The notes under the pieces: model-generated
Databases searched by the model: none
What the model was told of the DNA's origin: nothing
Seen by the model: only the letters and a program-made list of their open reading frames with translations
Virus record (IMG/VR): IMGVR_UViG_3300028840_006907
Coordinates: 32,001-96,000 of that record
DNA length: 64,000 bases
Source: a virus
Strand: one strand, 5' to 3'
Program-made: the position numbers and the translations under genes
Part shown: one piece after another, positions 3,239 to 58,352 of the stretch
How positions within the stretch are numbered: the stretch's first letter is position 1
Layout of the letters: the number at the start of each line of letters is the position of its first letter

Positions 3239-3740
3239 TATATATACCCAATTACCTTTTTTATCCAGTAATATAACATTTTAATACTATCAAATACCAA
3301 CGTCCTATATGGTGCGTCCGTATTAATCTCTATTAAATCAGTCGTCCTATATCTTTAAACTATGGTCTATATAGTAATAAACACGATCTATAAATCAAAT
3401 AACAATTTTAAGGTAATCCTCTTACTCATCAATATCCATATCTTTATAATAAAAAACCCACACATAGCACCTATAAAAATGTGGAACCCTTTAAGGCATT
3501 TCTTAAGTAACTATGTATGGGCACTGAAAGGGATTTATACAAATCCCATTATTATCTTAATATATTAACTTACTATATGTCTATACCTATAAACATATCC
3601 CCCTATATATTACTAATTAGTAATATGAATGTAATTATCCCTATCCCCTATATCTAATAACCTATAAACTATCCATTAAGTATATCTGTATCCTATCCAT
3701 ATAATAACTCTGTAAGAGAAAATTAATATGTATCAGTATG

Positions 3741-3888
3741 CCCATTACCTTGAATAGAATAATGAGTAAGTCAGTACCAGGAACTATACCATCATGAACT
3801 ATGAACTCGGAACTATGTCAGGGAAAACTTGAGTACTTACCCATTACCTTGAATAGAATAATGGGTAAGTCAATACCAGGAACTATGT
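3741..3888. repeat. direct repeat of about 48 bp (two copies, 99 bp apart) containing CCCATTA..TAATGGG hairpin and GAACTAT iterons
   Basis: cccattaccttgaatagaataatg(a/g)gtaagtca(g/a)taccaggaactat seen at 3741 and 3840. Confidence 0.7.
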
Positions 3889-4260
3889 CGGGAATTTCCA
3901 ACGAGTATTTTGAAAAAATTTATTCTCCCTGCAAAACCCGGAACCGATTTCCTAGTTCCTACAATCATATATTAATAATCTTTTGTTATCTGTATAAGTA
4001 AATTTACACAGGGTAATTGACTGATCAAAGTAAGTTAATGTCTTCCCAAACCGAGTCTTTGACTTGGGGAAATTGGTTGTTGACTGTAGAGAAGAATAAT
4101 TTCACTTGCTCATTTGGGTATTTGACTTGGGGAAACTGGTTCCCGACTATCAAAAGTGGGGTTAAAAACGAGGGGGGTTACCCCTAAATTTGATATTTCC
4201 AGACTGGGAACTCAGACAGGGGCGATTCCAGACTGTTTCTGGCCAGACTGGGGGAAAGAC

Positions 4261-4512
4261 CTAAGACGGTCTTAGTCCACTCATCCAAGACCATTGCCAT
4301 TTATCTGATCCGTAGCTCCAGACCTGGAATGACTTGGATAGAATTTTATATGTTACTGCCAGACAGAAAATGATCTTTGAGTCTCCACGTCCCAGGATTT
4401 CCTGGACACCGTGTAATCCACGGAACTCTAGGCTATCGGCTGATTTAATTTCGTTCTGAACTTCTATGGGAAGTTCATTCATGTTTATTTGATCTATACT
4501 TGTGATATGCAT
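4261..4512 (-). CDS. hypothetical protein
   Basis: ORF track; co-oriented. Confidence 0.35.
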   Translation of the reverse strand: MHITSIDQINMNELPIEVQNEIKSADSLEFRGLHGVQEILGRGDSKIIFCLAVTYKILSKSFQVWSYGSDKWQWSWMSGLRPS

Positions 4513-4703
4513 TAGTCTCTCAATGCCTCACAGGTAAGGGTAGCGGGAACTACTTCAAACTGAGTTCCAGGTTCAGTACCTTGTGTGAGTTCTACTGTAC
4601 GTATGCTGGCTATATTAAAGTCAGTATAGAACTCTGTGTTATCATCCCATGCGAATTTTTTATCTTTATTTATTATGATCCATCCTTGTAATTTCATAAT
4701 CAC
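4512..4703 (-). CDS. hypothetical protein
   Basis: ORF track; co-oriented. Confidence 0.35.
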   Translation of the reverse strand: MIMKLQGWIIINKDKKFAWDDNTEFYTDFNIASIRTVELTQGTEPGTQFEVVPATLTCEALRD

Positions 4704-18344: not shown

Positions 18345-18650
18345 TTATTTAATAGGCATTCCCAAAGTTTTTGCTACATTGTTCCAAGTTTCTTTCTCTT
18401 TCCATCCAGTCTCAAGAGCATTGAGAGCGGTTACAGCATGATTATATTGCTCTGTTGTGCCCTTATTAACTATTCGACTGAGAAAAGGCTTTGCCTGATT
18501 AAAGAACATAAAATGATGACCGTCCTTAACGATTCGTTTATGTGCGAGTTCTCTGAGAGCGGTATAATTATCTTTCCGGTATTTCTTAGCTCTCATTACG
18601 ATTTTTTTGCCATTGGTTGAATTTTGCAGTGCGTCTTGAATAGAGTTCAT
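18345..18650 (-). CDS. hypothetical protein
   Basis: ORF track. Confidence 0.4.
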   Translation of the reverse strand: MNSIQDALQNSTNGKKIVMRAKKYRKDNYTALRELAHKRIVKDGHHFMFFNQAKPFLSRIVNKGTTEQYNHAVTALNALETGWKEKETWNNVAKTLGMPIK

Positions 18651-18908: not shown

Positions 18909-19517
18909 TTAGTTATAGCGAGTTATTCCGTCACTGGATTCAAAATCCATTGCGAGTATGGTATATAATTCCGTTTCCTGTGTATTAATTGTGTCTGGAT
19001 TGACTTGTCTGGAATATCCATCACTGCTTTCAAAATCCATTGCGAGTGAAGCAAATTCATTTGATATGGTTACAAGCGAGTTAACTGGTTGAATTTCAAC
19101 GATTTCAGTCTGGGTTTGGACTTCTTTAATACATTCATCCATTAAACTATTTAGAGTATCTAAGTCGGTAGTTTTTACGAAGGTTTCCCAGTCCTCTTTG
19201 GACATATTAAAATATTCTCGTACGACTTCGAGTTTATCTATATCTGTTATAGTTTTTACTTTGTTCCCGTTTTGCCAAATACTTTTAGCTTTATTAGTAT
19301 ATATAATCTCGCCTGTAAAGTTATGGTTGAAATTTAACCAGCGAGTCTCGTTATTTACTGACGGGTCAATGACTTCAGCGAGTTTATTACCAAAACGGTT
19401 TATACGATAACGGCCAGTACATTGAACGTTTATCCATTCACGAATTGTTTTTCTTGCGGTTTGGTTTGTGCCATTAATAACAGCACCAATTAATTTATCG
19501 TTCATTAGTATAGACAT
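18909..19517 (-). CDS. hypothetical protein with duplicated C-terminal ILAMDFESSDG segment
   Basis: ORF track; 22-bp direct repeat at about 18936 and 19024 inside the CDS. Confidence 0.45.
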   Translation of the reverse strand: MSILMNDKLIGAVINGTNQTARKTIREWINVQCTGRYRINRFGNKLAEVIDPSVNNETRWLNFNHNFTGEIIYTNKAKSIWQNGNKVKTITDIDKLEVVREYFNMSKEDWETFVKTTDLDTLNSLMDECIKEVQTQTEIVEIQPVNSLVTISNEFASLAMDFESSDGYSRQVNPDTINTQETELYTILAMDFESSDGITRYN

Positions 19518-19572
19518 AATATTTCCCCTTGTCTAATGTATATATTAACAGTCAATTATTTTTTTCTGTTGT

Positions 19573-19915
19573 CATGAATAATGAAAAAAGTTTAGTAACT
19601 TTCCGAAGTTTTAAGAAACTTTTTCTTTGACGTTTGTTTTTTGTGGCTTTCATGAGTAATGAAAAAAGTTTAGTAACTTTCCGAAGTTTTAAAAATTTTT
19701 TCTTTCATGTAAACTTTTCCTTGTCTACATGAGTAATGAAAAAAGTTTAGTAACTTTCCGAAGTTTTAAAAATTTTTTCTTTCATGTAAACTTTTCCTTG
19801 TCTACATGAGTAATGAAATTAGTTTGGTAACTTTCCGAAGTTTTAAAAATTTTTTCTTTCATGTAAACTTTTCCTTGTCTACATGAGTAATGAAATTAGT
19901 TTGGTAACTTTCCGG
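19573..19915. repeat. tandem repeat, 77-78 bp unit, about 4.4 copies
   Basis: Unit starts (catgag/catgaa) at 19573, 19651, 19728, 19805, 19882. Confidence 0.85.
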
Positions 19916-20311
19916 AAAAAATTGTAAAAACGCTATTTTCCTTTATATAGGGGAGAGCCAGAAATCGCCCGTTTGATGTGCGTGATATATACGCCCGAAA
20001 ATGTTCCCGGTTCTAACCCCCCAGTGAAATACCCTTTCCACAAAAGTGAAATACCCCAATACAACTATACCATACCCGACCATACCCCACCCCCGGGACC
20101 TGTCTTCGGGATCATCATCATGCGCTTGCTTTTCGTGCGCTCAATGCCATACCCACCCCCTTTTTGTAAAGATTTTTGGAAGTTGGAAATGGATGGAGTT
20201 AGATTGGATTTTTTGGATGGTAGAAAATTTTGGCTGGTGGGAGAGACCCCACAGTAAAGTACCCGGTTGGTTCAGGGAAGTACCAATATGGTTCAGTGGA
20301 GTGTCTTTTTT

Positions 20312-20371
20312 GTGGCGCATATCCTGTTATAGTGGCGCATATTCTATTATAATGGCGCATATTTCAGTTCA
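20312..20371. repeat. tandem repeat, 20 bp unit x3 (TGGCGCATAT core)
   Basis: tggcgcatat at 20313, 20333, 20353. Confidence 0.7.
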
Positions 20372-20397
20372 AAGCTCTCAGAACCCAGTTCAAAGAA

Positions 20398-20628
20398 CAG
20401 GGAACAGGGAACTGAGCACAGGGAACTGAGCACAGGGAACCGAGCACAGGGAACCGAGCACAGGGAACTGAGCACAGGGAACTGAGCACAGGGAACTGAG
20501 CACAGGGAACCGAGCACAGGGAACCGAGCACAGGGAACTGAGCACAGGGAACCGAGCACAGGGAACTGAGAACAGGGAACCGAGCACAGGGAACTGAGAA
20601 CAGGGAACTGAGAACAGGGAACCGAGCA
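20398..20628. repeat. tandem repeat, 14 bp unit (cacagggaac[t/c]gag), about 16-17 copies
   Basis: Direct reading; two unit variants differing at one T/C position. Confidence 0.85.
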
Positions 20629-20872
20629 CCTGTATCTGTGATCTCGGAAAAGTTTCGGGAAAAAAATCGGGAACGGCTCAGGGCTGAGAAATAGGTATGA
20701 ATTTTTTTGGGGTATAATTTTTGGAGTTAAACAGTTGGGGAAATTGGAGTTATCTTATGTGAGGTGATGGGATAGTTTATGGAGGGTGAAAATTTTTTGG
20801 TATAGTTTGATGGAGAAACAGGTATAATACTTATAGGACGGAAAAATTTAAGTCTAATGGTTCGAGGATCTT

Positions 20873-21064
20873 GTGAAGAAGAACACAAAGCGTAAATTAA
20901 ATAAATTGATAGCATTTTGCAAGGATGAGGGGATGGACATAAGTGCGGATGGTGGTTTAATTTATGTCACGGTAGGAAATGGTCGGATGAATGAGGAGGT
21001 TTGGTGTGAGAAGGCTATCAGTGGTTTTTCGGAGGTTGGTGATTTTGGTTTTAACGAGGATTAA
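20873..21064 (+). CDS. small protein, paralog of 23157..23354 (GTG start with GAGGA SD)
   Basis: KL.K...C...G...SA.G.I...V.G shared with 23157..23354. Confidence 0.35.
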   Translation: MKKNTKRKLNKLIAFCKDEGMDISADGGLIYVTVGNGRMNEEVWCEKAISGFSEVGDFGFNED

Positions 21065-38923: not shown

Positions 38924-39682
38924 TTGGAGACATCTGTGAAGTATAGCGTACTTGTACCCTACTATAAACGCCTAGGGCACCTACATAATACCTTTATTTC
39001 CTTTCTACACCATTATTCAGATAGAAATGATTATGAGGTTGTCATAGCAGAAGATTATAAAAATGTCCAGAATAAAAAAGACCATGACGGTCTATCAGAA
39101 ACCATTGAGAAATTCCGTGAAAAAATACCGATAATTCATTTAACTCTTTCTATGGAAACCTGGAATCCAGCTCATGGTTTTAATGAAGCTGCAAAGTGGG
39201 CTTCTGGTGAATATTTCGTTGTAACCAATCCAGAATGTTTCCATCAAGTGAACATACTGGCTGGACTCGATAAAGAATTTGAAGAAGACCCCAATGTCTA
39301 TGTTGTATGTGGTTGTATGAATTATGTCCGTTGTAATTTTTTTATTAAAAACTTTAATGATCTAAATGGAAAATTTCAGAGATGGTACCAACACTCAATA
39401 CATAGAGCAGCCCACTATCATTTCTGTTCAGCTATTTCAAAACAGAATTGGGTAAAAATAGGAGGATTCGATGAAGACTTTGCTATGGGTATAGCCTATG
39501 ATGATGTCGATTTTAAATTAAGCATTCAAAAAGCCAAGATACCCTTTCATATCCGGGATGACCTTCTTACTATACATATTGACCATGGTTCCTTCCCATC
39601 TCCTCCAAATGCTCAGAAATTAGTTAATCGAAATAGAATCACCTATCAAAGAAAATGGGAAGGAAGTAATGAATCTTACTAG
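38924..39682 (+). CDS. putative family-2 (GT-A) glycosyltransferase
   Basis: N-terminal YSVLVPYY and GGFDEDFAMGIAYDDVDF segments resemble GT2 signatures; start codon uncertain (TTG 38924 or GTG 38936). Confidence 0.5.
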   Translation: METSVKYSVLVPYYKRLGHLHNTFISFLHHYSDRNDYEVVIAEDYKNVQNKKDHDGLSETIEKFREKIPIIHLTLSMETWNPAHGFNEAAKWASGEYFVVTNPECFHQVNILAGLDKEFEEDPNVYVVCGCMNYVRCNFFIKNFNDLNGKFQRWYQHSIHRAAHYHFCSAISKQNWVKIGGFDEDFAMGIAYDDVDFKLSIQKAKIPFHIRDDLLTIHIDHGSFPSPPNAQKLVNRNRITYQRKWEGSNESY

Positions 39683-41762
39683 TTATACCGCAGCCGACAG
39701 TATCCCGATAAAATTGATTAAGAACTTTAAATTGTTAAAGTCCATGACAACAAAAGGAGTCATCTTACCAATCCATGTCCAGTTCATACCCACAAATAGA
39801 TGTAACATGAAATGTGGATTTTGTAGCTGTGCTGAAGATGACAGAAAAACAGAAATGTCCCTTAAAAATGCTAAGAAGATCATCAGAAAATTAAAAAAAC
39901 TCGGTACTCAATCCGTAACCATCACCGGAGGAGGAGAACCACTCCTTTATCCTCATCTCCAAGAATTGTTTTCTCTGTTTAAAGATGCCGGGATAAAAAT
40001 CGGTTTTGTTACCAATGGCCTCTTATTAGGTAAATGTACCTATGAAGATGTAACCTGGTGTCGGATTTCTAATTCTGATGAAAGAAAAATGGACATGGAC
40101 TATTATCACACAATAGCTTATGCTGTTGAAGATAACCCAAACGTGGACTGGGCCTTTAGTCATGTCGTTTCTCCAAAACCAAATATCTCCGAAATAAAAC
40201 GGATCATAGAATTTGCCAATCTCCATGATTTTACCCATGTCCGATTAGTAGCTGATCTATTGAATTATAAAGAAGTAGATTTAATGCAGTTAAAAATCAC
40301 TCTTCGAGATGAAAATGTCGATGATGATAAAGTCATCTATCAAAGTAGAAATACCCCGCTCAGAGGCGGAGACTGTTATATATGCTATCTTAAACCCATG
40401 ATAGGGGCTGACTGTAATGTGTACGCTTGTTGTTTAGAGGCTAATGAACCTGTATTAATCCAGAGAAATAACGAAAGGATGTATTTATCTATAAAGGATG
40501 TTGTTCCAGGGGATTATGCTTGTGAATATGGAAAGATTTTAAATGTGTTTCATAAAGAGGGTGAAGAAGGCTTGGAAATAGTTTTGCAAAATAATAGGAC
40601 TATTTATGTTTCGAAAGATCATCTTATGCTTAAATTGACAAACCCTGAAATTAGACATAAGAGAAAGAAGTTATTATCTGACTATGAATTAGATACAATA
40701 GAATCTTCTGAATTAAGAATTGGAGATTTACTTCCGGTCAAATATAAATATGATATTAGTGAAATAAAAGAAGATACTATATCTGAAGAAGAAGCAGAAT
40801 TAATAGGATATTATGTAGCTGAAGGTTGGTCCAATGAACGAACTTGTATAGTTGATAAAAAATATCCTACTAGAACTACCACTATAGGATTTATGCTAGG
40901 GAAAGAGTCAAGAGAATATATAAGAAGATTTGAAGAAATTTGTGATATTTTGAATCTAAATTTTTCTATGACTGAACGTAGAACTGGTATGCAGTATCAG
41001 ATAGGTGCACATAAACCCTACGATGACTTAATTGTACACTGTGGTAATAAAGCAGAATTAAAAAAGATCCCTCCTTTTATTTTAAACGGCTCTGATAAAA
41101 TAAAGTGGAAATTTATTCAAGGCTATTTTGGAGGTGACGGGAATTTTCAAACTCCTTCTAAAAGCTATGATGGTTTTAAAATGAGAATGAGTACTGTCAG
41201 TAGACAACTAGCTAATGATATAATTTATCTCTTTTGTACTTTAAATATTCATGCTTCTATGAGAGTTGAGAGACGTGAAGGAAAAATGATAATAGAAGGA
41301 AGAGAGGTAAATGCTAAAGATCGGTATCATATAAATATAGGGGGAGCCTATAATTTAGAAAAAGCCCCATTCCTAAATGTAATTCAAACAAAAGAAAGAA
41401 GTCCTAAAAGAGCCCTCGGTTTTTTGAAAGATGAGGATAAGGGCATTATGTTTGTACCAGTTAAAGAGATCAGAGAGAAAAAGTTAGGAAAATTAGTAGA
41501 CATTCAAGTGGAAGGTTCAAATAAATTTATATCTTCATTTGGTATAATAGTTCATAATTGTGGCGTCCAGTATGCTCTTAAAAAGCCTTCAAAGAATCTT
41601 CCTAAGAAACTGAGCCTAGGAAGTGCTTTTGATCTTGAGAAGATAATTGAGAACAGTAATAAGCCCCTGGACGGGAGCATGTGTTATCGATGCTATTATA
41701 GTAATTATAACAAGATACTAGGATCCATCCTGGATGATACCGATCATATGGAGTTTGTATGA
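39669..41762 (+). CDS. radical SAM enzyme interrupted by an intein
   Basis: CNMKCGFC (CxxxCxxC) and TGGGEPLL in N-extein; intein blocks described separately. Confidence 0.65.
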   Translation: MNLTSYTAADSIPIKLIKNFKLLKSMTTKGVILPIHVQFIPTNRCNMKCGFCSCAEDDRKTEMSLKNAKKIIRKLKKLGTQSVTITGGGEPLLYPHLQELFSLFKDAGIKIGFVTNGLLLGKCTYEDVTWCRISNSDERKMDMDYYHTIAYAVEDNPNVDWAFSHVVSPKPNISEIKRIIEFANLHDFTHVRLVADLLNYKEVDLMQLKITLRDENVDDDKVIYQSRNTPLRGGDCYICYLKPMIGADCNVYACCLEANEPVLIQRNNERMYLSIKDVVPGDYACEYGKILNVFHKEGEEGLEIVLQNNRTIYVSKDHLMLKLTNPEIRHKRKKLLSDYELDTIESSELRIGDLLPVKYKYDISEIKEDTISEEEAELIGYYVAEGWSNERTCIVDKKYPTRTTTIGFMLGKESREYIRRFEEICDILNLNFSMTERRTGMQYQIGAHKPYDDLIVHCGNKAELKKIPPFILNGSDKIKWKFIQGYFGGDGNFQTPSKSYDGFKMRMSTVSRQLANDIIYLFCTLNIHASMRVERREGKMIIEGREVNAKDRYHINIGGAYNLEKAPFLNVIQTKERSPKRALGFLKDEDKGIMFVPVKEIREKKLGKLVDIQVEGSNKFISSFGIIVHNCGVQYALKKPSKNLPKKLSLGSAFDLEKIIENSNKPLDGSMCYRCYYSNYNKILGSILDDTDHMEFV
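40431..41558 (+). mobile_element. intein with LAGLIDADG-type homing endonuclease domain (boundaries approximate; N-terminal Cys at 40428 or 40431)
   Basis: Starts CLEANEPVLI, ends GIIVHN followed by Cys; internal IGYYVAEGW and IQGYFGGDGNF motifs. Confidence 0.6.
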
Positions 41763-44019: not shown

Positions 44020-47018
44020 AGGGAAACCCCGCTCAGATGCAGGGAAGAAGATTTCATTAAGAAGTTTTAGGAAGAGCCCCGCAGAGGAGGAACCTCGCAA
44101 GATGCGGGGAAAAGGAACTTCAGGCAATTGGCTGGGATTAGCCCCGCGAAGGTGCGGGGAAAACAGTTTCCATGAACTATATTAGGGAGAGCCCCGTTGA
44201 CACGGGGAAAAACCCGTCTTTACTTAGTGAGATCGAGGAAGGAACAGCCCCGTTGATACGGGGATAAAATAATATGACTTTTACGAATCCTCTAGGGACA
44301 GCCCTGCAGAGTGCAGGGAAAAGTAACGTCTGGGAATTGTTTAGGATTAGCCCCGCGAAGGTGCGGGGAAAGCCATAGATTTTATATTGACACAGGAAAA
44401 ACCCCGGTATAGTCCGGGGAAAAGTACGTAATCAAGATGTAAGAGGATTAGACCCGGCGAGTCCGGGAAAAGATTGGCCCAATCACTATTAAGTAGGGTG
44501 GGATAGCCCCGCAGAATGCAGGGAATAGATGCCTCACTTCATACCACTGCGTCAACCCCAGTAGAGTCCGGGGAACATGAGTGTAAATCTCTGTCGTAGG
44601 TTCAACCCCGGAGAGATCCAGGGGAAATGGGTACAACTTTGTGTACAAGGGGTAGCCCCGGAGAAATCCGAGGAAAATGAGTGTAAATCTGTGTTGAGGG
44701 TCCAGCCCCGCTCAGTGCAGGGAATATTAAGGGTCAAAACCGGTTGCCCCTGCGTCAACCCCGGTGAAGTCCGGGGAACATGAGTGTAAATCTCTGTGGT
44801 AGGATCAACCCCGCAGAGTGCAGGGAAAAATTGAACTTTTTAATCAACCCTGTAACAGCCCCGGAGTCAGTTTTGACAAGTCCGGGGGAATATCACTTCG
44901 TAAAGGAGTGGCTGTCAAGGGGGCAACCCCACAGAGATGTGGGGGAAAGTAAGCCAACGTTCCGGCATAGGCATAGCCCCTGAATTTACAGAGGGCAATT
45001 TTTCCAGTGTCCAGAAGAAGATGCAGGGAGAACCCCGGAAAGTCCAGGGGAAAATGTGTCACAGAACAACTCTTTGTGATCTCCAGGGTGAACCTCGCAG
45101 AGGTGCGGGGGAAAAGTGTCAATGAATACCAGTATGAGTCAGCCCCGGTATAGCCCGGGAATAATTACTTCTAGTCTGATAGAAGGTGCAACCCCGGGAA
45201 GTCCGGGGAAATCGGTCATAGCCATCTGGACCAGGAAGAACCCCGGTGAGATCCGGGGAAAAGGACGTTTAAATCCTGACATAGTAGCTAACTGAGGCGT
45301 AGCTCCGGTCGGGTCAGCCCTGCAGAGAGCAGGGAACAAACATAGGTAATAAATCGGCACGTGACAGCCCCGCAGAGAGGCGGGGATATATAGCGTGAGT
45401 TGCAGGGTAAGGTTCAACCCTTGTTTACCAAGGGAAAAATACCGGCAGATAAGAATTTAGGATGACCCCCGGTGAAAGTCCGGGGAAAATAATTAATACG
45501 CAAAACAGCAGGGCCAGTCCCGCGAGATGCAGGGAATGTTCAGCCAGTTTGTGTAATATTTCAGGAGACGGTGGTGCAACCCTGTCAAGGACAGGGATAT
45601 GCAACATCTGTGGCTCTACGAGGATCAGCCCCGGCAAGTCCGGGGAATTATCTTTTTATAAATGCCAAAAATAACAGTTGGGAGGGGCCAATTCCGCTGA
45701 TGCAGAAAGACATTTCATAATTAATATATTTATGGAAGAGCCCCGGTGAAATCCGGGGAAGTCAAGTAATTACAGCTCGCTGACCACTGGGGGTAGCCCC
45801 GGTAAGATCCGGGGAAAAGTTTGTTTTGAAACAAACGCTAGGAACAGCCCCGCTCAGGTGCGGGAGAATCACTGCATATTTGGTTAATGGCCCCCCTGAG
45901 TCAATCCCGCTCAGGTGCGGGGAAAATAAAGAGATAGACTAATTCAATATGCAGGAAGAACCCCGCTATATGCAGGAAAATTTAAAAAGTATGGATATCT
46001 CCTTGAGTCAACCCCGGAGATCCAGGGAAATGTAGGCACTCGTTGTCCTTTGTCGAAGTGTGAAGGGCAAACCTCGTTGATACGAGGAACAAATTTAGTT
46101 TTACTTTTGAATAAAAGTGGTCAAGCCCCGCTCAGGTGCAGGGAATAGATAAGTATACCGACGATAGCCAGGACAGCACCTGTGGTTTAGCCCTGCATGT
46201 GCAGGGAATAGTTGAGTTGAAGATTGAAGAAAAAGATAAAGTAGGGTCAGCTCTGCATGTGCAGAGAATAGCCTTTCTTCAAGCGTTGACTTGGGAGTAG
46301 GTGGGGATCAGCCCTGCACATGCAGGGAATAGAATGGTGAATCAAATTCCATTTTGTCAAAGAACGGCGACAGCCCTGCCAGTGCAGGGAATATGATTTT
46401 AACGATGGTAAAATTGGGAAGGGGTCAGCCCTGCACATGCAGGGAATAGTCGCTAGTTCAAATCCAATCGCCCCGACAGGATCAGCCCTGCATACGCAGG
46501 GAATAGAAAATACTGACGATAAACTAGCGATATGGGATCAGCCCTGCATACGCAGGGATATAGCTTGACGAATGGCCGTTTTAATGCCAGGAGTAACCCC
46601 GCTGCGAGGAATAGTCATTTCAAATATATAGGTAAAGCCCCGCGAAAGAGCGGGGGTATAATATGGCGGATTTTGTTCTATTGGTGGAATCCGGGCCATC
46701 CCCGTAGATTGACACGGGGAGATCTTTTAGAAATCTACCAAGGTGCCTTTCCGGAGTCATCCCCGTATATACGGGGGAGATTTCAATTCAGGGAATTTCG
46801 GTACAAAATTGGTCGGTTTATCCCCGTATACACGGGGAATATTGTTTCAATAGGGCATAGCAGATCTAGGATCGGGGAATCCCCGCAGGGGCGGGGAACA
46901 TCTCGGATTTATTAATCAAATTCAAACGTTTTTCGGGGAATCCCCGCAGGGGCGGGGAACATTGTTTTAAGAGGTGGTAGTTACCTCGTAGGGGAATCCC
47001 CGCAGGGGCGGGGAACAT
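44020..47018 (-). CRISPR. CRISPR array 1, roughly 50 repeat-like units, strongly heterogeneous; leader-proximal repeat ggggaatccccgcaggggcggggaacat (28 nt, 3 identical copies)
   Basis: Periodic hairpin repeats with 23-33 nt spacers; leader-proximal copies at 46874, 46935, 46991; minus-strand reading matches the I-E TTCCCCGC-N4-GCGGGGAT form. Confidence 0.8.
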
Positions 47019-47127: not shown

Positions 47128-49359
47128 CTAGTGGATATACCGAATCCATTCATATCGAATTTTCATCGTTTTATAAGGAGCTTTTTTTCTCCCTGGAAAT
47201 ATGTTTCCTTCAAAAAGGAAAAATTTTTGAACAATTTTAAATTCAGCGTTTGATGGTGTCAAGCTCTGTGGTGCATAATCCGAACGCCAGTAATTATTAC
47301 AATATATAAATTTTTCTTCTCTGTCTTTTTGTATAAGGCCCGGAAACACCACTAAAACTATCTTTTCGTTTTCAATAACAATATCCCCTTGATAAATAGC
47401 TATTTCTAAATCCAGACCATCCTGCTCTATCACACGAGCATATTTCGAGAGTTTCCCATCAATCTTTACTTTAGCTTTAGGGGGAATATCAAAAGTTATC
47501 CATTCACCTTTTATGTCCTTAATGCTTTGAATAGGTTTTTTAACTGGAATTTCTTGAAAGACATGATCTTGGTATTCTGCTTTTTTAAGGATTTCTCCAT
47601 CTTTTTCCATATTAAGCAATAAAGCCTTTTCCATGATGTCTTTAAGTTCATAGAGATCTTTTTCAGTTAAGGGCTCTTTTGTTCCGAATACGATGGAACC
47701 TACATTCTCTAATCGAGCGATTTTATCAAAACCCTGTTTCCGGACAAAGTCTATGGTAATATGTTCTATTTTTCTATTTCTTGAAAGTCTTATGATTCTT
47801 ACAAATTCAGTTTTAATTGTGTCTTTGAAATTATCAAAACTTAAATGATCTTCTACGTAGGGATGATACAAATCCGCTATAAGACTTAATAAAATTTCTA
47901 TGTCTTCAGGTTTATCCTGTTTACGGTTGTAATCATAAGCTTTAATAATTTCTTGTCTCATTTCCATTAATATATCAGGAGCCATTATTTCACTTAAACT
48001 GGTAGATCCTTTTTTGTCCCGATAAAAGGGAGCTGTTGGAAGTAAGGGAATCCTGATAGCAGCACAAAGTTCTGACATTACAATTGAGGTTAAGAACAAA
48101 TTCAATCTGTCTGAATATAATGCCCTGATATTATTACGTTCTTCTTTTTTAATAGGTGGAACATAAATGTATAACCATATTTTATCTTTTTTAGGGTAAC
48201 ATCTGAAAATACGAAACATTATTTGAGAGAAGGTCACCTGACTCTTTCCATAACTTGTATTATGTAAAACAGCAGCAGGAGGCCAATCATACCCTTCATA
48301 GAATATTCTGCAAGATACGGCGACCCAGTATTTTTTATGATTACGTCTCAATAACTCTCTATTTTTTTTCTGAGTTTCCGGTGTGACTAAATCCAGTACT
48401 TTGGACGCAGGATATATTTCGTGAATAGCTTTTAAATATTTTTTAAGGGTTCCTTCCTCTCTGAACCGGTTCCCCATGTCAGGTAATATGACAATGTGTC
48501 TTTGATCTTTGTGCTCTTTCATATATCTAATGATCTGAGTAAGGGGATCTTTCCTATAGTGAGTGAAACGGAAATTGAATTCTTTGATTTTTATGATTGA
48601 GAGATAGTCATTTAATGGGATAACCCATTTTTCAAAATGATGTTTATAAGCATTGGGGACTATTTCTCCTCTGTCTGTGCGGTGGTAAGTAGCTGTATAA
48701 AAATTTACGTTACAAGTAGGTTCATGGATGGTACATACATCTCTGACAAAATCACCCAAATGAGTGGAATCTAGTGGGGTTGATTTTGAATGATGGCATT
48801 CATCTACATGTACAGTTAAATTTCTAAGGGCTTTCTTTTTTTCATAGTTGGTTAATTTTTCCCAGGTCATGACAAACCCTCTATGGGTAGCTGTAGCAAT
48901 AGGGCCTGTTATATGTTTTTCATTGTACGGGTATTTTCGAGGATCTGCTAAAAGGAATTCTTTAAGTCCTTTAATGGATTGAGGGTTTTCACTATTGAAT
49001 TTATGTTCTTTTGGTACTTCCCACAATCTTACCATACCTTTATATTTGATTTTTATTTGTCTATTTTGGGATCTGCAGAAATTTTCACCTATTTCTATTG
49101 TTGGTGCGATAAAGATATGTTTTCGAGTATTTTTAGATATTATGATTTCATCCAGGGATATGCATACTGCTAAAAAAGTTTTGCCGACTCCCCCTGGTGC
49201 ATCAAAGATCATGTATCTGAATTTTTTCCCATATTCTTTTGCATTGCATTGCCAGCCAGAGGGTATCATGATCCCTGATTCAAGTTTTTTATTATAGGTA
49301 CCAAGGTCAACCGGTTCTATTTTAATAGATTGCTGGAAAAGCGGTAATAGCTTTTTCAT
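47128..49359 (-). CDS. cas3: SF2 DExH helicase, Cas3-like, without HD nuclease domain
   Basis: Motif I FDAPGGVGKT, motif II VDECHH, motif III TAT, motif VI-like QIMFRIFR; sits between cas6e and leader 1; GAGAGGA SD. Confidence 0.5.
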   Translation of the reverse strand: MKKLLPLFQQSIKIEPVDLGTYNKKLESGIMIPSGWQCNAKEYGKKFRYMIFDAPGGVGKTFLAVCISLDEIIISKNTRKHIFIAPTIEIGENFCRSQNRQIKIKYKGMVRLWEVPKEHKFNSENPQSIKGLKEFLLADPRKYPYNEKHITGPIATATHRGFVMTWEKLTNYEKKKALRNLTVHVDECHHSKSTPLDSTHLGDFVRDVCTIHEPTCNVNFYTATYHRTDRGEIVPNAYKHHFEKWVIPLNDYLSIIKIKEFNFRFTHYRKDPLTQIIRYMKEHKDQRHIVILPDMGNRFREEGTLKKYLKAIHEIYPASKVLDLVTPETQKKNRELLRRNHKKYWVAVSCRIFYEGYDWPPAAVLHNTSYGKSQVTFSQIMFRIFRCYPKKDKIWLYIYVPPIKKEERNNIRALYSDRLNLFLTSIVMSELCAAIRIPLLPTAPFYRDKKGSTSLSEIMAPDILMEMRQEIIKAYDYNRKQDKPEDIEILLSLIADLYHPYVEDHLSFDNFKDTIKTEFVRIIRLSRNRKIEHITIDFVRKQGFDKIARLENVGSIVFGTKEPLTEKDLYELKDIMEKALLLNMEKDGEILKKAEYQDHVFQEIPVKKPIQSIKDIKGEWITFDIPPKAKVKIDGKLSKYARVIEQDGLDLEIAIYQGDIVIENEKIVLVVFPGLIQKDREEKFIYCNNYWRSDYAPQSLTPSNAEFKIVQKFFLFEGNIFPGRKKAPYKTMKIRYEWIRYIH

Positions 49360-49628: not shown

Positions 49629-50273
49629 TTAATAAGATTTATACGGTGCAATAAGCATCATACCACATCCGAAACCTTTACTCTTACCAATTCCATTATA
49701 AATAGTATTCACAAAAAGATTTTTATTGACTACCTGAAGGACTCCTCGTAAATCAATACTGAAAAAAGATACAACTTTACCATCTTTTTTTTTGAATTTA
49801 CAGAATTGAAAAGATTGAACGGAATGCTTTTGAATCATATTTTTAAAACCGTAACTTTGGCCACGTTTCTGAAGCCAATTCTTTGAGGATTCGTGAGCAA
49901 TGAAATTCCAATTATAGGGTTCATCAAGAACTTTCATTTCATTTGCCAGATCCGTCATGATTGAAACCTTTTTCCTGGTTTTCAATTTACAAACTTCGGC
50001 ATTGAGTCTGAGATCGTATTGAAGAAATATTCCAGATTTTAAATTATTTAAATCGAATACTTTTGTTTGTGTAGTGTATTCGTCCTCTGGAGGATTTGGT
50101 TTCTTTTTTGATATGATATAAAGTTCACCATTATAGAGATAATAAAGGAAATCTCTTACCCTGTTAGATCTTTGATCACCAAAAAATTCCCAGACTTTTT
50201 GATGAAGCTCATATATACCTTCGGTGGGAGAATATCTTCTCAAGCTGTCACTGTAAATTTTACTCAGAAACAT
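49629..50273 (-). CDS. cas6e: Cas6e (CasE) crRNA endoribonuclease
   Basis: MFLSKIYSD..YELHQKVWEFF..RDFLYY and C-terminal GIGKSKGFGCGMM match recollected E. coli CasE; start moved to ATG 50273. Confidence 0.75.
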   Translation of the reverse strand: MFLSKIYSDSLRRYSPTEGIYELHQKVWEFFGDQRSNRVRDFLYYLYNGELYIISKKKPNPPEDEYTTQTKVFDLNNLKSGIFLQYDLRLNAEVCKLKTRKKVSIMTDLANEMKVLDEPYNWNFIAHESSKNWLQKRGQSYGFKNMIQKHSVQSFQFCKFKKKDGKVVSFFSIDLRGVLQVVNKNLFVNTIYNGIGKSKGFGCGMMLIAPYKSY

Positions 50274-50910
50274 TCGATACCTCCTTCCATCCCATATACT
50301 CAATTCGGGATCGGTATTGTTTGGGACCGGTTACCTGATCAAAACGTTGATTGCTTTTTACTATTTTGATACTGGTATCGGTACCTTCCCAAAATATTCG
50401 GTTCTTTTCACGCCCTTTAAGACTACCATTAAGAAATTCAGGAAGAGAGTACTGTTCAAACGCCTCTGAGAGGCTCTCAGCCTTAACGATCTTAGGATCG
50501 GGTGGTATGTCATAGGAACAGCATTTCCTTCCAAGAAAGGGGGTATAGATGGGCCTATTAAGGGCTTCCATTATTTTCTTCAAAGTATAGGGACAGTTTT
50601 CATTCTCCCATATACATACGGTAAAGATGGCATTGACTAGGTAAAATCTATTCGAGACAATTCCTGGTCCGACTCTGACAATATGGAAATCTTTTAGAAT
50701 AGTACCAGGATTATCTTCCCTACAGGCAAATCCTAGTTGGGCAATCTGAGTTAATTCTTTCACCATTTCTCTTGAGACTCCAAGAGAAGCAGCGATTAAC
50801 CCGCTTACGCCAGATTTGGTAGGGTGATCATCTGTCTTTCGGGTATTACCCTGAAGGGGGAGACCCCAGGCGGATAGAGTACCCGAAAGAAGGAATAATA
50901 AATAATTCAT
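50260..50910 (-). CDS. cas5e: Cas5e (CasD)
   Basis: LSGTLSAWGLP, PTKSGVSGLIAASLG, YTPFLGRKCC match recollected E. coli CasD; AGGAG SD. Confidence 0.75.
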   Translation of the reverse strand: MNYLLFLLSGTLSAWGLPLQGNTRKTDDHPTKSGVSGLIAASLGVSREMVKELTQIAQLGFACREDNPGTILKDFHIVRVGPGIVSNRFYLVNAIFTVCIWENENCPYTLKKIMEALNRPIYTPFLGRKCCSYDIPPDPKIVKAESLSEAFEQYSLPEFLNGSLKGREKNRIFWEGTDTSIKIVKSNQRFDQVTGPKQYRSRIEYMGWKEVSNVSE

Positions 50911-50933
50911 AATATTATAACTCCTGGTAACAA

Positions 50934-52019
50934 TTAGAAATCGATGAATTTAATAAGTTCGTTAAGTGATCCTTCTTTTGTGAGTACATTCAAGATCCTA
51001 TAATCCATTTCATGGTAACATGAATCAAAACTACTTTTCATGTCAAGAAGGGCTTTGACAGCATTTTCCATAACCGCAGGACCTTTAATAGGAGTATGGA
51101 AGGCTTGACAGAGACTTCGTGGGGCAGTTGGAGCTTTTTCGATCATAACGAATGCTGGCCATGTTTGACTATCAGCACATCTGTTTTTATTAGCTGAGGG
51201 GGATGAAGTGGTTAATACTTCGACTATCTGTCGGATGGTTTTGATAGCTAGTTCTTTATTACCTTGAAGATTTTTCGTTAAGAGCTTGGAATTGATTACA
51301 AAGAAACTATAATAGACACCCTGGGTAAAATAGAAATTATCTAGGTGACCTGAACCTTTGGTTCCTTCTAATCCAAGGTTATCGGTAGCTGTAAAATAGT
51401 CGGTTTGGACAGATCCTATATCATTGACAGTAAAAGCGAAATTTGAGGACAGTGAAGCTTCAACATCATATTGGGGCAGTTTTGCAATCATGCGACCGGT
51501 AAGGGCTGTTCTGATTCCTGTATTTTCTTTTAAAAAGAAGAATTCTTGATCAGTGGGTTTATGCCCCTCAATAATTTTGTCAATCAGTTCTTCAATATGT
51601 TGTCTTTCGCTCGGTTGAATTTTAATGGTTTCGGTTTTAAGAAGATCAACCTTTTTTTTCTTTTTCTTTGTATTTTTATCATCTTCTTTTTCAGTGTGCT
51701 TTTTGATATCAACAAAAGTACCAATAAATTTAAATGCGTATTCTTCAGCTTTTTTAGGTGATATTCCACCATCAATTAATCTTTTCTCGACATATTTTCC
51801 AATAAGAGGAGTCTGAAGACCTATATCGATTTCGCACCTTTCAAATAGAGCCTTGTTTAAATCATATTTTCGATTTTGTGAAGACGAATAACCTCGGTTG
51901 GTATCATTAAGTTTCATTGTTTTAGGACGTCCGTCCTGGCCTCGGTTTATGCTAGATACAGCTACACCAGTGAGAAGGTGAATTAACCAGTAGGGGTCTT
52001 TAATAATAGTTTTAGACAT
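50934..52019 (-). CDS. cas7e: Cas7e (CasC) backbone subunit
   Basis: SINRGQDG, SSSQNRK, ALTGRM, FTATDNLGLEGTKGSGHLD match recollected E. coli CasC. Confidence 0.8.
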   Translation of the reverse strand: MSKTIIKDPYWLIHLLTGVAVSSINRGQDGRPKTMKLNDTNRGYSSSQNRKYDLNKALFERCEIDIGLQTPLIGKYVEKRLIDGGISPKKAEEYAFKFIGTFVDIKKHTEKEDDKNTKKKKKKVDLLKTETIKIQPSERQHIEELIDKIIEGHKPTDQEFFFLKENTGIRTALTGRMIAKLPQYDVEASLSSNFAFTVNDIGSVQTDYFTATDNLGLEGTKGSGHLDNFYFTQGVYYSFFVINSKLLTKNLQGNKELAIKTIRQIVEVLTTSSPSANKNRCADSQTWPAFVMIEKAPTAPRSLCQAFHTPIKGPAVMENAVKALLDMKSSFDSCYHEMDYRILNVLTKEGSLNELIKFIDF

Positions 52020-52045
52020 AAATACTCCTTGATATTTATTATTTA

Positions 52046-53989
52046 TTATATGTTATTTGAATATTCTCTTTCCCAGTAGAACTTGACATCTTTGCTCCAG
52101 TGGGCATACCCTTCCATGAAACTGATGATGTTAAATCCTTCCATTCGAGAAACAACATCAGCAAATACTTTCCAGTTTTTTTGTATATCCGTTTTATTGA
52201 AACTCATCATTTCGTCAACATGTCGGCGGTTAATTTTTTGAGAACCCATTTGGGCACCGAAAGATTGAGAAAAATCCAGATCCTTAGCTTTAAAAACAAT
52301 TAGTAGAAGAGGTACGAAAAGAGTCTTCATATCTTCTGATCTTAAAGCAGGGAAATGCATAGACATTTCTAAAATAAAATTCAAATAAAGGTCTTCATGT
52401 TTTAAGATATCGATGTCAAAACATCGGGTAAATACCCTATGTTTTTCTGTATTTCTAATAGTCCCGTACCAGGACAGGAATGGTTTGGTAAAGACCTGGT
52501 TAAAATGAGGTAGGTTTAATTTCCTGTATTCGATATGGGCGAAATTCTCATATTCTAATGGTTGTAGTTTAAGAGGTTTAACAACTTTTTTATTTAAGGT
52601 TTCGATAAATTGTTCCTTAAAATATTTCTGTAAACCTCTCTTTTCAGTACCTACATTTTTTTCAAATGTATCGAAAGCTTTAACTACCATCTTTTCCAAC
52701 CATTTTTCGATATTATGATTCTTGAGAACTTCATAGAAGTATTCTTCAGTTTCTGTCAGAAATTCGTGAAATATTAAAGGTTCGGTTTTATCAGTTCCCC
52801 AGAACTTTCTTATATAATTACAGGTATACCATCCTATAAGATATGAGTGTTCTCTGATATTTAAAGTAAACGCACTATCTTTATAGAGTTCTTCTGGGAT
52901 ATCGAATTTATTTTCCTCCCATCCAAAGAGTTTGGCTTTAGCCATATTATAACCGAAAGTCCATAATCCGAAATCAGTTATTCCAAGATATTCTCGGTTC
53001 TCCATGAAATGACTCACCACTAAAGCTGGAGTTAATTTTTTAGCTGGTAGTAGATAGGTCACAAGATCGAGATGGCTGGTAAAGTCCAGGGGTTTCCGGA
53101 AACCTGTTTCTTTGCCTTTTATAATGGGTGAAAGGATATGACGTGGTTTGACATAACAGTTACCATAATTCCTCGTTTTTATCTTTCTAACCATTAATTT
53201 GGAATGATTGCCACAGATAGTACATGATTCATCAAATTTATCAAAGATAAGATGAATACGTAGAGGCATTTCCCAGAGCGGGTAATAAGGATTCATCTCA
53301 TCCAGGGAAACAGTAGCTTTGTTTTTACTATCAACGGTATCACTAAGCCATGGGAGTGTTACACCTTTTGGATTTCCTCCGAATTCAAACATGGTCTTTT
53401 TAATAATAACATTAGACCATATTGTTTCCCATAACGTGGAACCGGTAATAATAGTGGTAAGAGAACCATTGGCACCGGCTGTTATCGAAGTACGGTATCC
53501 TTGGCCTCCCATAATGGCACTGAGTTGATTAAGATAAAGGGCAATTGTAGCACAGGATTGGCAAAAAGTATGTATCTTTGCTTTTTGGAAGAAATCTTTA
53601 CCAGCTTTAATTGTCGCTGTCCCTGGAGTATCAAAGAGGAGATTACCAACATTTACGATTCTTTCAAGGTCCTGTGGCCGTTTATCCTGTAAAAAACGAG
53701 GACCTTTGCCATCTAGTTCAAAGAGTTTTGGTTTAAGTTTTTCTAGGATGGCTTTTTGGTTTGGTGCTTTTTTGAATAGTTTTTTCCATTCTTTCTTACT
53801 TGTAGGAGCAAGATAAGTGTTGAAAAAACCTATGAGAAGCCGTACACCTACAGCATTGAAATCGGGTCTACCGAAATCGAGAGCTATTATAGGGTTATTA
53901 GGTTTTGAAGTTATTTTGTAGGGTGGAATGTTTTCCCTGGTACCGTCTTTTCGGATGACGGGGATCCAAGGGTCCTTAATTACATTCAT
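52046..53989 (-). CDS. cas8e: Cas8e (Cse1/CasA) large subunit with C-terminal extension, possibly fused Cse2/Cas11
   Basis: N-terminal MNVIKDPWIPV, CQSCATIALYLNQ, ESCTICG match recollected E. coli CasA; 647 aa vs about 500 in CasA; GGAGGT SD. Confidence 0.8.
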   Translation of the reverse strand: MNVIKDPWIPVIRKDGTRENIPPYKITSKPNNPIIALDFGRPDFNAVGVRLLIGFFNTYLAPTSKKEWKKLFKKAPNQKAILEKLKPKLFELDGKGPRFLQDKRPQDLERIVNVGNLLFDTPGTATIKAGKDFFQKAKIHTFCQSCATIALYLNQLSAIMGGQGYRTSITAGANGSLTTIITGSTLWETIWSNVIIKKTMFEFGGNPKGVTLPWLSDTVDSKNKATVSLDEMNPYYPLWEMPLRIHLIFDKFDESCTICGNHSKLMVRKIKTRNYGNCYVKPRHILSPIIKGKETGFRKPLDFTSHLDLVTYLLPAKKLTPALVVSHFMENREYLGITDFGLWTFGYNMAKAKLFGWEENKFDIPEELYKDSAFTLNIREHSYLIGWYTCNYIRKFWGTDKTEPLIFHEFLTETEEYFYEVLKNHNIEKWLEKMVVKAFDTFEKNVGTEKRGLQKYFKEQFIETLNKKVVKPLKLQPLEYENFAHIEYRKLNLPHFNQVFTKPFLSWYGTIRNTEKHRVFTRCFDIDILKHEDLYLNFILEMSMHFPALRSEDMKTLFVPLLLIVFKAKDLDFSQSFGAQMGSQKINRRHVDEMMSFNKTDIQKNWKVFADVVSRMEGFNIISFMEGYAHWSKDVKFYWEREYSNNI

Positions 53990-54264: not shown

Positions 54265-54586
54265 GACAGCCCCGGTAAAGTCCAGGGAAATAAAAATTAG
54301 TGATAATTCGGGAATCAGCAGGAGGAGAGCATCAGCCCTGCGTATGCGGGGAATAGTGTTATCGTCTTACAGGATGTAAAGCAGAGACAGCCCCGCGTAT
54401 GCGGGGAATAGAAATTAATACATCTCATAAAATCTAGCATCAGCCCCGCGTATGCGGGGAATAGTTATTTATCTATACTTCCTACAACTCCCATAACGCA
54501 TCAGCCCCGCGTATGCGGGGAATAGCTCGTTGGTTTTCCCATTCCACAAAAGTTCAACGCATCAGCCCCGCGTATGCGGGGAATAG
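54265..54586 (-). CRISPR. CRISPR array 2: 6 repeats (distal one degenerate), repeat gcatcagccccgcgtatgcggggaatag, spacers 25-33 nt
   Basis: Repeat copies at about 54265, 54329, 54385, 54437, 54498, 54559; 61-bp period for the three leader-proximal units. Confidence 0.85.
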
Positions 54587-57467: not shown

Positions 57468-58352
57468 TTATTTTTTGAGTCCTTTTGCTAATTTTAAATC
57501 TTCAAGCCCAAAAACCCAAGTGGCCTGTTGTCCTGATTCAGAAATTTTATTAACCATCTCTTGTGTCTTGTTTATTTGATAATATGTTGCAAATGGGATG
57601 CCATTTCTTTTACAAGCTTTACCCATTGAATCAATTTTAGCTACTTCAAGTTTCACACTAACCAATTGAGCAGTTTCTTGGACTATTTTTTTATCTTGTT
57701 GAATATTTGATGCAGTTACATTTGTTAAAGTTAATGGCACTGAATTTCGTTGAAATATGGTATCTGCCATTGCATATAATTGGTTATTCAATACTTCTTT
57801 ATTCTTTTTAGTATTAAGTGTTTCAAAATTTTTAAATCCGGCAAAAACTATTCTGGCACTGGGTCTGCAATCCATTCCGGCATAAGTATCATAAACTGAC
57901 ATTAAGCTTATAATCTCTGTATTAGGGGTAGTACCTGGTTTAGATTTCATTTCACCTAATATTTTTGTGAGGTACTCAGTATTATTTCGAGAGAGGTTTA
58001 CTTTGTACCTGACATCTACAGTTAAGGGCGCTTGGTCTCCAAGAGTTATTCGATGGTCTTTGTCAGGGCTCTCTTTTACAAAGGGCTCTTTCTTGGTATA
58101 TACTCCAATTTCTACGAGAATTAGCTTGTTATGAAATTTAGTCTTTCTGTCTACTTTCCCTAGATTAACTAATTGTCCGGAGGTGTAAATTTTTAATTTG
58201 CCTCCACCGTCCATTTCAAATCCAGTGCTTATTTGTTTTACCCCAATATATTTTCGCGGTACTTCGACATATGTATCTCTAGCACAGCCTATCATCATGA
58301 GTAGGAATGAGGTAATTATTATGGTCGATAGAAGTTTTATGTACAGTTTCAT
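57468..58352 (-). CDS. putative lipoprotein
   Basis: Hydrophobic signal-like N-terminus ending LMMIGC (lipobox-like). Confidence 0.45.
   Translation of the reverse strand: MKLYIKLLSTIIITSFLLMMIGCARDTYVEVPRKYIGVKQISTGFEMDGGGKLKIYTSGQLVNLGKVDRKTKFHNKLILVEIGVYTKKEPFVKESPDKDHRITLGDQAPLTVDVRYKVNLSRNNTEYLTKILGEMKSKPGTTPNTEIISLMSVYDTYAGMDCRPSARIVFAGFKNFETLNTKKNKEVLNNQLYAMADTIFQRNSVPLTLTNVTASNIQQDKKIVQETAQLVSVKLEVAKIDSMGKACKRNGIPFATYYQINKTQEMVNKISESGQQATWVFGLEDLKLAKGLKK

Follow-up and report, generated by a model that had tools for sequence, protein, structure and literature searches.

Among the closest described systems, the lambda PL/PR operators and the T7 A1-A3 early promoters are noncoding regions with promoter-like boxes and repeated protein-binding sites, and the genes they serve first are of unassigned or anti-defence type. 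Huge phages are known almost only from metagenomes, and we know of no account of how their gene expression or replication starts. Here we describe a region with the same traits, the noncoding gap (the hub) at positions 19,518 to 20,872 of a 64,000-nucleotide stretch of DNA from virus record IMGVR_UViG_3300028840_006907 (positions 32,001 to 96,000 of that record; the whole stretch is called the window). The window belongs to a huge phage-like, circular-mapping element of ~469 kb, known from metagenomes only, which may be a phage or a megaplasmid.

Our favoured reading, to which we give a probability of about 0.5, is that the hub serves as a common control region for two diverging operons, which are made up of small unannotated genes; the two gene blocks are probably early or host-takeover blocks. 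The new part is a conserved single-copy core with a sigma-54-type promoter cassette that is swappable in orientation. Sigma-54 promoters are silent until an ATP-driven activator fires them, and sigma-54-type promoters heading gene blocks that look first-expressed were unexpected. A literature search yielded no description of comparable hubs of huge phages or of such an element, and none of sigma-54 promoters controlling phage early blocks. If confirmed, the reading would mean that an enhancer-dependent switch gates the programme of some giant phages. As a subject for tests, the hub provides a concrete, conserved, single-copy DNA site with a start predicted at a defined base.

Coordinates are those of the window, and minus-strand features read from right to left. 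W denotes the window locus and L004-L020 the loci of relatives; the sequence compared totals 241,904 bp. The parts of the hub and the genes that bound it are as follows.

18909-19517, minus strand: first leftward gene, 202 aa, family F0, no known domain (open reading frame (ORF) list)
19573-19914, minus strand: 77-bp tandem repeat, 4.4 copies, 74% A+T, between the core and the first leftward gene
19916-19999, minus strand: conserved single-copy core, ~85 nt, the best-conserved noncoding block in the four-genome and 15-locus alignments
19985-20165, minus strand: C-rich island (G-rich on the minus strand), where the C content of the window peaks; its motifs lie 25-200 nt upstream of the core
20166-20311, no strand assigned: spacer with TTTTTGG-type short repeats (families D7 and D8) and blocks conserved in the alignment
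20312-20363, plus strand: 20-bp repeat, three copies (Tandem Repeats Finder and pattern search)
20404-20629, plus strand: 14-bp head-to-tail repeat, 16 copies, ACAGGGAAC[T/C]GAG[C/A] (Tandem Repeats Finder and pattern search)
20659-20690, no strand assigned: conserved block by the 14-bp array, on the minus strand TCAGCCCTGAGC-N4-CCGATTTTTT, which aligns with L004 and L009
20700-20872, plus strand: rightward promoter-like zone with three -10-like boxes (motif listing and sequence comparison)
20873-21064, plus strand: first rightward gene, 63 aa, GTG start, function unassigned (ORF list)

The conserved core and its promoter cassette

Relatives of the hub (L004, L009 and L006-L008) were found through homologs, at 67-69% identity, of a DUF932 protein whose gene lies 3.5 kb from the hub. 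The repeat-rich gap of these relatives is flanked by homologs of the 202-aa and 63-aa genes, and its parts follow a common order: short-period array, G-rich patch, core, long-period repeat and first gene. The unit sequences differ among relatives, with short periods of 10 bp (8 copies), 12/18 bp (10-14 copies) and 12/24 bp, and long periods of 111, 78 and 78 bp. In L004, L009, L006, L014 and L020, a homolog of the 202-aa protein is encoded by the first or second gene past the core (the first in L014 and L020), and in L004 and L009, homologs of the 63-aa protein, at 60-65% identity, are found on the hub's divergent side. Since L004 and L009 carry an extra gene between the strand switch and the arrays, it is the 202-aa-gene block, rather than the switch point itself, that the arrays accompany.

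The core had gone unnoticed in the preliminary description of this DNA, which was made from the sequence alone. On the minus strand, it consists of a small hairpin, CATCAAACGGGCGATTTCTGGC, a variable segment (TCTCCCCTATATAAAGGAA) and then AATAGCGTTTTTACAATTT. Its invariant elements, TTTCTG (...AAAyGGnCnnTTTCTG) and AATAGCnTTTTTACAAT, flank this variable segment of ~21 nt. In the four-genome alignment, CATCAAACGGGCGATTTCTGGC is followed by 19 nt and then by AATAGCgTTTTTACAATTT (window minus strand, ~19999-19916); counted by hand, the spacing between the invariant parts is 19 nt in all four genomes. The match to the core pattern in the window runs from 19964 to 19922, with an exact 17-mer at 19921-19937 and a TATA-like box at ~19942-19949. 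This 17-mer occurs once in the 64 kb of the window and once in each related locus, and the core is conserved although the flanking proteins are only 26-69% identical. Searching JGI metagenomes with the pattern TTTCTGNC-N17-21-AATAGCNTTTTTACAA retrieved 11 further loci, one of which lies within a 442-kb contig. In almost all loci, a gene block on the same strand begins at the core, and a divergent block lies upstream of it. If confirmed, TTTCTGnC-N19-AATAGCnTTTTTACAAT could serve as a sequence tag for recognising this clade and orienting its genomes.

Two other identities for the core were set aside. For an attP copy of a host gene, the core pattern had no match among 185,579 species, each represented by one genome, and there is no integrase next to the core; for a reiterated phage-polymerase promoter, the 17-mer is unique in 64 kb. 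Beside the core of L018, 518-1168 nt upstream and on the divergent strand, is the gene for a 216-aa protein in which, by eye, a candidate MerR-type helix-turn-helix appears to be followed by a serine-recombinase catalytic motif; the core there is of the forward sigma-54 type. In L020, three paralogs (245, 219 and 304 aa) that consist largely of YGNAxV-type short repeats are encoded 1559-3869 nt upstream of the core, also on the divergent strand.

The variable segment of the core is where sigma-54 promoter sequences concentrate. The strict pattern TGGCAY-N5-TTGCW has nine matches in the 241,904 bp compared (~0.33 expected), and eight of the nine fall within this segment. Forward cassettes, which point toward the 202-aa-gene block, occur at an identical offset in L004, L013, L014 and L018, and reverse cassettes at another fixed offset in L011, L019 and L015, the last being one sequence with L016. 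Within both groups, the N5 positions vary and the specified positions are invariant. The only strict match outside the cores, TGGCATCCCATTTGCA at 57588-57603 (minus strand), lies inside the ORF at 57468-58352 and may be due to chance.

In the window, L009 and L006, the cassette reads TGGCTC...CCCTATATAA(A/T). The window cassette keeps the TGGC of the -24 element and has a -10/TATA-like box. Counting by hand, with a sigma-54 start ~12 nt after the GC and a TATA-like start 6-7 nt after the box, we infer that transcription from either cassette, forward sigma-54 or TATA-like, would begin at one A of the invariant AATAGC or right beside it.

Repeats, G-rich sites and a model of the hub

Three tandem-repeat classes had been reported in the preliminary description, and each was recovered. 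Tandem Repeats Finder gives 4.4 copies of the 77-bp repeat, the number first given (19573-19914, 93% match, score 535), and 16.1 copies of the 14-bp repeat, for which 16-17 had been claimed (ACAGGGAACTGAGC, 20404-20629, 93% match, score 382). For the 20-bp repeat, described as having three copies, the program counts 2.5 units (TGGCGCATATTCTATTATAA, 20313-20363, score 81), and three cores are seen, at 20312-20322, 20332-20342 and 20352-20362. All three classes are specific to the hub: within the window, only the hub contains matches to the 14-mer pattern (16, against 0.23 expected), to GTGGCGCATAT of the 20-bp class (3, against 0.23) and to a 20-mer from the 77-bp unit (4, against 0.02). The arrays are not a CRISPR array, as all three classes are head-to-tail and have no spacers. 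The hub also proved to be the divergent strand-switch point it had been taken for, because it is flanked by the start codons of the leftward (18909-19517) and rightward (20873-21064) genes.

Each full 77-bp unit contains an inverted repeat (CATGTAGAC-N8-GTTTACATG), a small AACTT-CGGA-AAGTT hairpin and a TTTCATTAC box, and its folding is equally significant on both strands (z = -3.5). A long-period repeat begins 39-249 nt past the core in nine loci; seven of these have periods of 77, 78, 78, 77, 76, 79 and 80 bp, and the remaining ones have periods of 68 and 111 bp. The units of different lineages share a TTTCATTAY box, and the tandem repeat next to the core is 63-76% A+T in every lineage that has one. 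Units are palindromic in five of nine lineages and fold equally on both strands, with no consistent strand bias. Since the folds are equal on both strands, they point to DNA-level palindromes that are operator-like rather than RNA-like. A structured RNA, suggested by the tRNA-like size of the units, was rejected, as the fold is significant in only those five lineages, strand-equal and not conserved. A tRNA scan of the window found none, and Rfam at the gathering threshold gave no match in the window, the hub having only two chance-level matches (E = 0.5 and 0.72).

Two assemblies break inside the 77-bp array. Both ends of ENA contig ERZ27256798 (469,021 bp) lie within it, at window ~19874 and ~19862, as does an end of a 388,651-bp contig of JGI 3300017963. 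Because both ends of the 469,021-bp contig meet in this array, the map is circular or terminally redundant at ~469 kb. The contigs of L006 and L007 also end at hub repeats, and in L004, a run of N (a scaffold gap, 2190-2289) within the 111-bp long-period repeat marks another break. A practical point is that assemblies of such genomes fragment at these tandem repeats.

The C-rich patch stands out from the rest of the window as first described: in the 200 nt from 19961, C makes up 0.355 of the bases compared to a window mean of 0.165 (z = 4.5, rank 1 of 6,380). The island holds GGGTAT/GTATGG-type motifs in one orientation only (GGGTATGGC, GGGGTATGGTCGGGTATGGTATAG, GGGGTATTTCAC and AGGGTATTTCAC). 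In the 400 nt upstream of the core, forward and reverse counts of these motifs are 5/0 in W, 8/0 in L004, 9/0 in L009 and 8-9/0 in L006, a roughly 40-fold enrichment, with a handful in the other ~16 kb of each locus. The cluster is confined to the window's clade.

Farther upstream of the core, the spacer contains two blocks that are shared with L004 and L009, on the minus strand CCAAAATTTTyC and GACACTCC. The 20-bp unit has an 11-nt conserved core, (G/A)TGGCGCATAT, followed by nine variable nt. With its spacing of two helical turns, it is the most classically iteron- or operator-like element of the hub. It is lineage-specific, since no counterpart was found in L004, L009 or L006. At the position of the 14-bp array, relatives have short-period arrays of 10 bp (8 copies), 12/18 bp (10-14 copies), 12/24 bp, 18 bp (26 copies) and 45 bp (10 copies), and such arrays are absent from a 442-kb relative; the loci without one are L011, L017 and L018.

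Homology links the rightward promoter-like zone with the strand-switch spacer of L004 and L009. Its three -10-like boxes are GGTATAAT at 20711-20718, GGTATAGT at 20799-20806 and GGTATAAT at 20821-20828, the last of which is 45 nt ahead of the GTG start of the 63-aa gene. Boxes of the GGTATAAT type were dismissed as a genome-wide promoter consensus, as they are not enriched upstream of other window genes.

These observations can be accommodated in a model in which the ~85-bp core is the functional centre of the hub and its two invariant elements clamp a promoter cassette of ~21 nt. A sigma-54 cassette (-24 TGGCAY / -12 TTGCW) would point into the 202-aa-gene block or, when flipped, into the opposite block. 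In the window, leftward transcription would start in the core, cross the 77-bp repeats and continue into 18909-19517 and past it. These repeats may be tandem copies of an ancestral promoter-proximal module of ~78 bp (inverted repeat plus TTTCATTAY) and would form stacked operator sites. The C-rich island is the complement of GGGTAT/GTATGG sites at -25 to -200, the position of activator (enhancer-type) sites in enhancer-dependent promoters. The 20-bp repeat could be a lineage-specific set of binding sites for an unidentified protein, and the 14-bp array a fast-evolving satellite of conserved position. The rightward block would be served by its own -10-like boxes, within 20711-20828.

A number of points weigh against reading the hub as a control region of this kind. 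The core of the window itself (TGGCTC-TCCCC-TATAT) has the -24 element, lacks the -12 element and fails the sigma-54 consensus. In a scan for the sigma-70 consensus, the hub showed no full -35/-10 promoter apart from one site overlapping the start codon of the 202-aa gene; over 3 kb, the scan gave four sites, with 9.2 expected. The sigma assignments are putative, being matches to consensus sequences. No Sigma54_activat match was found among the window ORFs scanned, which cover 64 kb of the ~469-kb genome, and no rpoN gene was seen there. Because L010-L020 were retrieved with the core pattern, the core is present in these loci by construction. With this pattern, the T, G and C of the forward TGGC are also given in advance, and the chance of ~6e-5 per lineage, calculated by hand from base composition, is that of the other eight specified positions. 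The seven lineages with cassettes, four forward and three flipped, are an upper bound on the number of independent events, as shared ancestry is possible. Since the G-rich cluster and the short arrays are clade-specific, they are not essential to the role of the core. Lastly, that the flanks stay fixed while the cassette flips or is replaced is odd for mere promoter parts and suggests that the flanks have another sequence-specific function.

A broader proposal, which we offer tentatively and hold to be somewhat doubtful, concerns the clade as a whole, a set of phage-like elements of ~390-470 kb from saline, soda-lake and sediment metagenomes. These elements would share an enhancer-dependent cassette, exchangeable for a TATA-like one and usable in either orientation between invariant sequences, as the master switch of two early or host-takeover blocks. 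The flanks would bind a conserved factor, possibly coupling the onset of transcription with replication.

Alternative explanations

The preliminary description took the hub for a replication origin or a master regulatory region. The regulatory half of this claim was strengthened by the orthologous hubs, the conserved core and the sigma-54 cassettes of relatives, and the origin half gained no support. The two roles are not mutually exclusive, and an origin, although unlikely, is the alternative that survives best. The core would then be the site where an initiator binds or DNA unwinds, and the 77-bp repeats an unwinding element, while the 20-bp and 14-bp arrays would serve as iterons in initiation or in the control of copy number. 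The cassette would provide transcriptional activation or an R-loop primer (G-rich RNA made off the C-rich template strand); as transcriptional activation is independent of orientation, this role would explain a cassette that can flip.

Several features of the core and its surroundings are consistent with an origin. The core is single-copy per genome, its invariant flanks are independent of promoter orientation, and the adjoining tandem repeat is A+T-rich in all lineages with one (in the window, 74% compared to a genome background of ~67%). Oriented clusters of binding sites lie nearby, as do the 20-bp repeats, which fit the iteron layout of 17-22 bp and ~2 turns. The hub is also at a divergent switch of gene orientation in nearly all lineages and at the minimum of cumulative GC skew in the window. 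However, the skew of leftward genes is -0.068 left of the hub and -0.047 to its right (47-64 kb), and that of the rightward block is +0.231. Because leftward genes are equally weak on either side and only the rightward block is strongly positive, the skew flip follows gene orientation. The DnaA box TTATCCACA, with up to one mismatch, does not occur in 19518-20870, and its 24 occurrences in the window equal the chance expectation. Pfam and PHROGs scans of the flanking genes gave no replication-protein domain, although an initiator might go unrecognised. The arrays change unit and period among relatives and are absent in L011, L017 and L018, and the 14-bp units are head-to-tail, without the ~2-turn spacing usual in iterons.

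The short arrays (the 14-bp array and possibly the 20-bp array) could instead be slippage products without sequence-specific function, satellites that a long noncoding spacer tolerates, with function limited to the core and the sequences near the promoter. This explanation, which is compatible with the control-region model, we consider decidedly unlikely. Relatives differ in the unit sequence, period and copy number of the array, and some lack it altogether; the 14-mer also resembles the neighbouring conserved sequence GCTCAGGGCTGAG at 20677-20689, a possible source of the amplification. A similar simple repeat is also found, probably by coincidence, in cyanobacterial plasmids. Yet at least six lineages have a short-period array in the corresponding place, which suggests selection on position, if not on sequence. 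The plasmid matches are to AP018300.1, NZ_CP124544.1, NC_019429.1 and NZ_CP040276.1 from filamentous cyanobacteria (67-85% identity over 50-230 nt). These matches were set aside: blastn matched the 14-bp array only, in a few plasmids, and we take the match as probably a coincidence because the one case inspected is a 66-nt intergenic simple repeat.

It is highly unlikely that the hub is a packaging or terminus region that holds a pac or cos site or the boundary of a terminal repeat, with the 17-mer as terminase site and the diverging blocks as the first DNA to enter the cell. The T7 concatemer junction and the T5 pre-early stop region have repeat arrays to which those of the hub can be likened. 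The core is single-copy and highly conserved, it adjoins small early-type genes including that for the DUF932 protein, and contigs of independent assemblies end inside the hub. These ends, however, fall at differing positions in tandem repeats, as expected of repeat-induced assembly breaks. Although both ends of the 469,021-bp contig are in one 77-bp array, the NCBI record GCA_016840655.1 / JAEORW010000001.1 (469,617 bp, encoding the same proteins) and the contigs of L004, L009, L011 and L020 are continuous through the hub. No terminase gene was found among the flanking ORFs scanned, and a promoter cassette inside a cut site would be left unexplained.

Rapidly evolving head-to-tail arrays of 8-16 units of 10-14 bp are typical of type Ib, II and III partition centromeres. 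The 14-bp array, ~240 nt upstream of a small gene in the window, might be such a parC/tubC-like site, with a small adaptor, perhaps the 63-aa product, that coats it and works with a downstream motor protein, but we find this barely credible. None of the 63-, 239- and 304-aa products shows a signature of ParM, ParA, TubZ or a ribbon-helix-helix protein. In L004 and L009, the linkage is broken by another gene and ~700 nt between the array and the 63-aa homolog. Genomes with no array unit sequence in common still encode 63-aa proteins at 60-65% identity. An oriT or leading region came into question because the leading regions of plasmids contain DUF932 genes; it was set aside, as transcription of both blocks proceeds away from the hub and neither relaxase nor transfer genes were seen, although this was not rigorously tested.

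The element, its genes and known systems

The hub had no match in 50,697 phage records by megablast or blastn, and scans of IMG/VR with the 202-aa protein, the 239-aa protein and the core pattern found nothing. The window has a G+C content of ~33%, and most of its genes are small and without family matches in Pfam and PHROG scans of the ORFs. Besides the DUF932 gene, it encodes GP88, HNH, radical-SAM enzymes and a type I-E Cascade. The 202-aa protein has no Pfam, PHROG or PDB match, sequence searches of PDB with the 202-, 304- and 1514-aa proteins were empty, and the AlphaFold model of the 202-aa protein is unusable (mean pLDDT 36.5). The 202-aa and 239-aa proteins each have one distant homolog, on short contigs that are of no use for synteny. 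The C-terminus of the 202-aa protein (18909-19517, minus strand) contains two copies of LAMDFESSDG; its single homolog has one, also at the C-terminus. In L004, a 476-bp tandem duplication (3506-4540, 2.2 copies, 98% match) results in two copies of a 118-aa gene homologous to window 18345-18650.

Elsewhere in the window, the type I-E Cascade genes lie at 49629-53989 and 47128-49359, both on the minus strand, and encode Cse1/Cas8e (647 aa), Cas7 (CT1975), Cas5 and Cas6e; a gene for a 743-aa ResIII/DEAD helicase adjoins them, and no cas1 or cas2 was seen in the 64 kb. There are two CRISPR-like arrays, at 54326-54586 and 46184-46564. The one beside cse1 has five repeats of CAGCCCCGCGTATGCGGGGAATAG spaced 53-61 nt apart, and the other has seven to eight repeats of GGATCAGCCCTGCAcATGCAGGGAATAGAA at a spacing of 55-62 nt. 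Between 44000 and 46000 is a 2-kb island of ~50% G+C without a long ORF, in which more than 40 diverged hairpin repeats are spaced irregularly, at roughly 50, 100 and 150 nt. Their stems co-vary (CCCCGG/CCGGGG, CCCCGC/GCGGGG and CCCTGC/GCAGGG), and the island has the look of a field of CRISPR-repeat-like hairpins that have degenerated and whose 'spacers' are very short. It also contains, at ~44380-44413, a perfect TTGACA-N17-TATAGT promoter-like site. The gene for a radical-SAM protein (39669-41762, plus strand) is split by an intein with a LAGLIDADG homing-endonuclease domain.

How does the hub compare with known systems? Iteron origins such as P1 oriR, lambda ori, RK2 oriV and F oriS resemble it in having direct repeats by an AT-rich repeat and a GC-rich patch at a unique locus, and the 20-bp repeat shares their classic layout of conserved core and variable spacer. 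The hub differs from these origins in that no adjacent initiator was found, there are no DnaA boxes and no orientation-independent skew switch, the arrays are not conserved, and the main array is a 14-bp head-to-tail repeat. By analogy, the pre-early injection-stop region of T5 may also be compared with the hub, as a kilobase-scale noncoding region with direct and inverted repeats that lies beside the earliest genes and is conserved in architecture. That region is, however, in the terminal repeat of a linear genome, whereas the map of the hub is circular, assemblies read through it, and nothing ties it to DNA entry.

Compared to bacterial sigma-54 promoters, the window core lacks the GC of the -12 element, and no activator or rpoN was seen among the ORFs scanned. 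The cores of seven related lineages are like these promoters: TGGCAY-N5-TTGCW is exactly spaced in them, and on the side where enhancer-binding proteins would bind, 40-300 nt upstream, there are repeated or palindromic sites. Finally, the hub departs from the lambda and T7 control regions in being much larger, at 1.35 kb, in having three tandem-repeat classes and an invariant single-copy core, and in the sigma-54 cassette that its relatives carry in either orientation.

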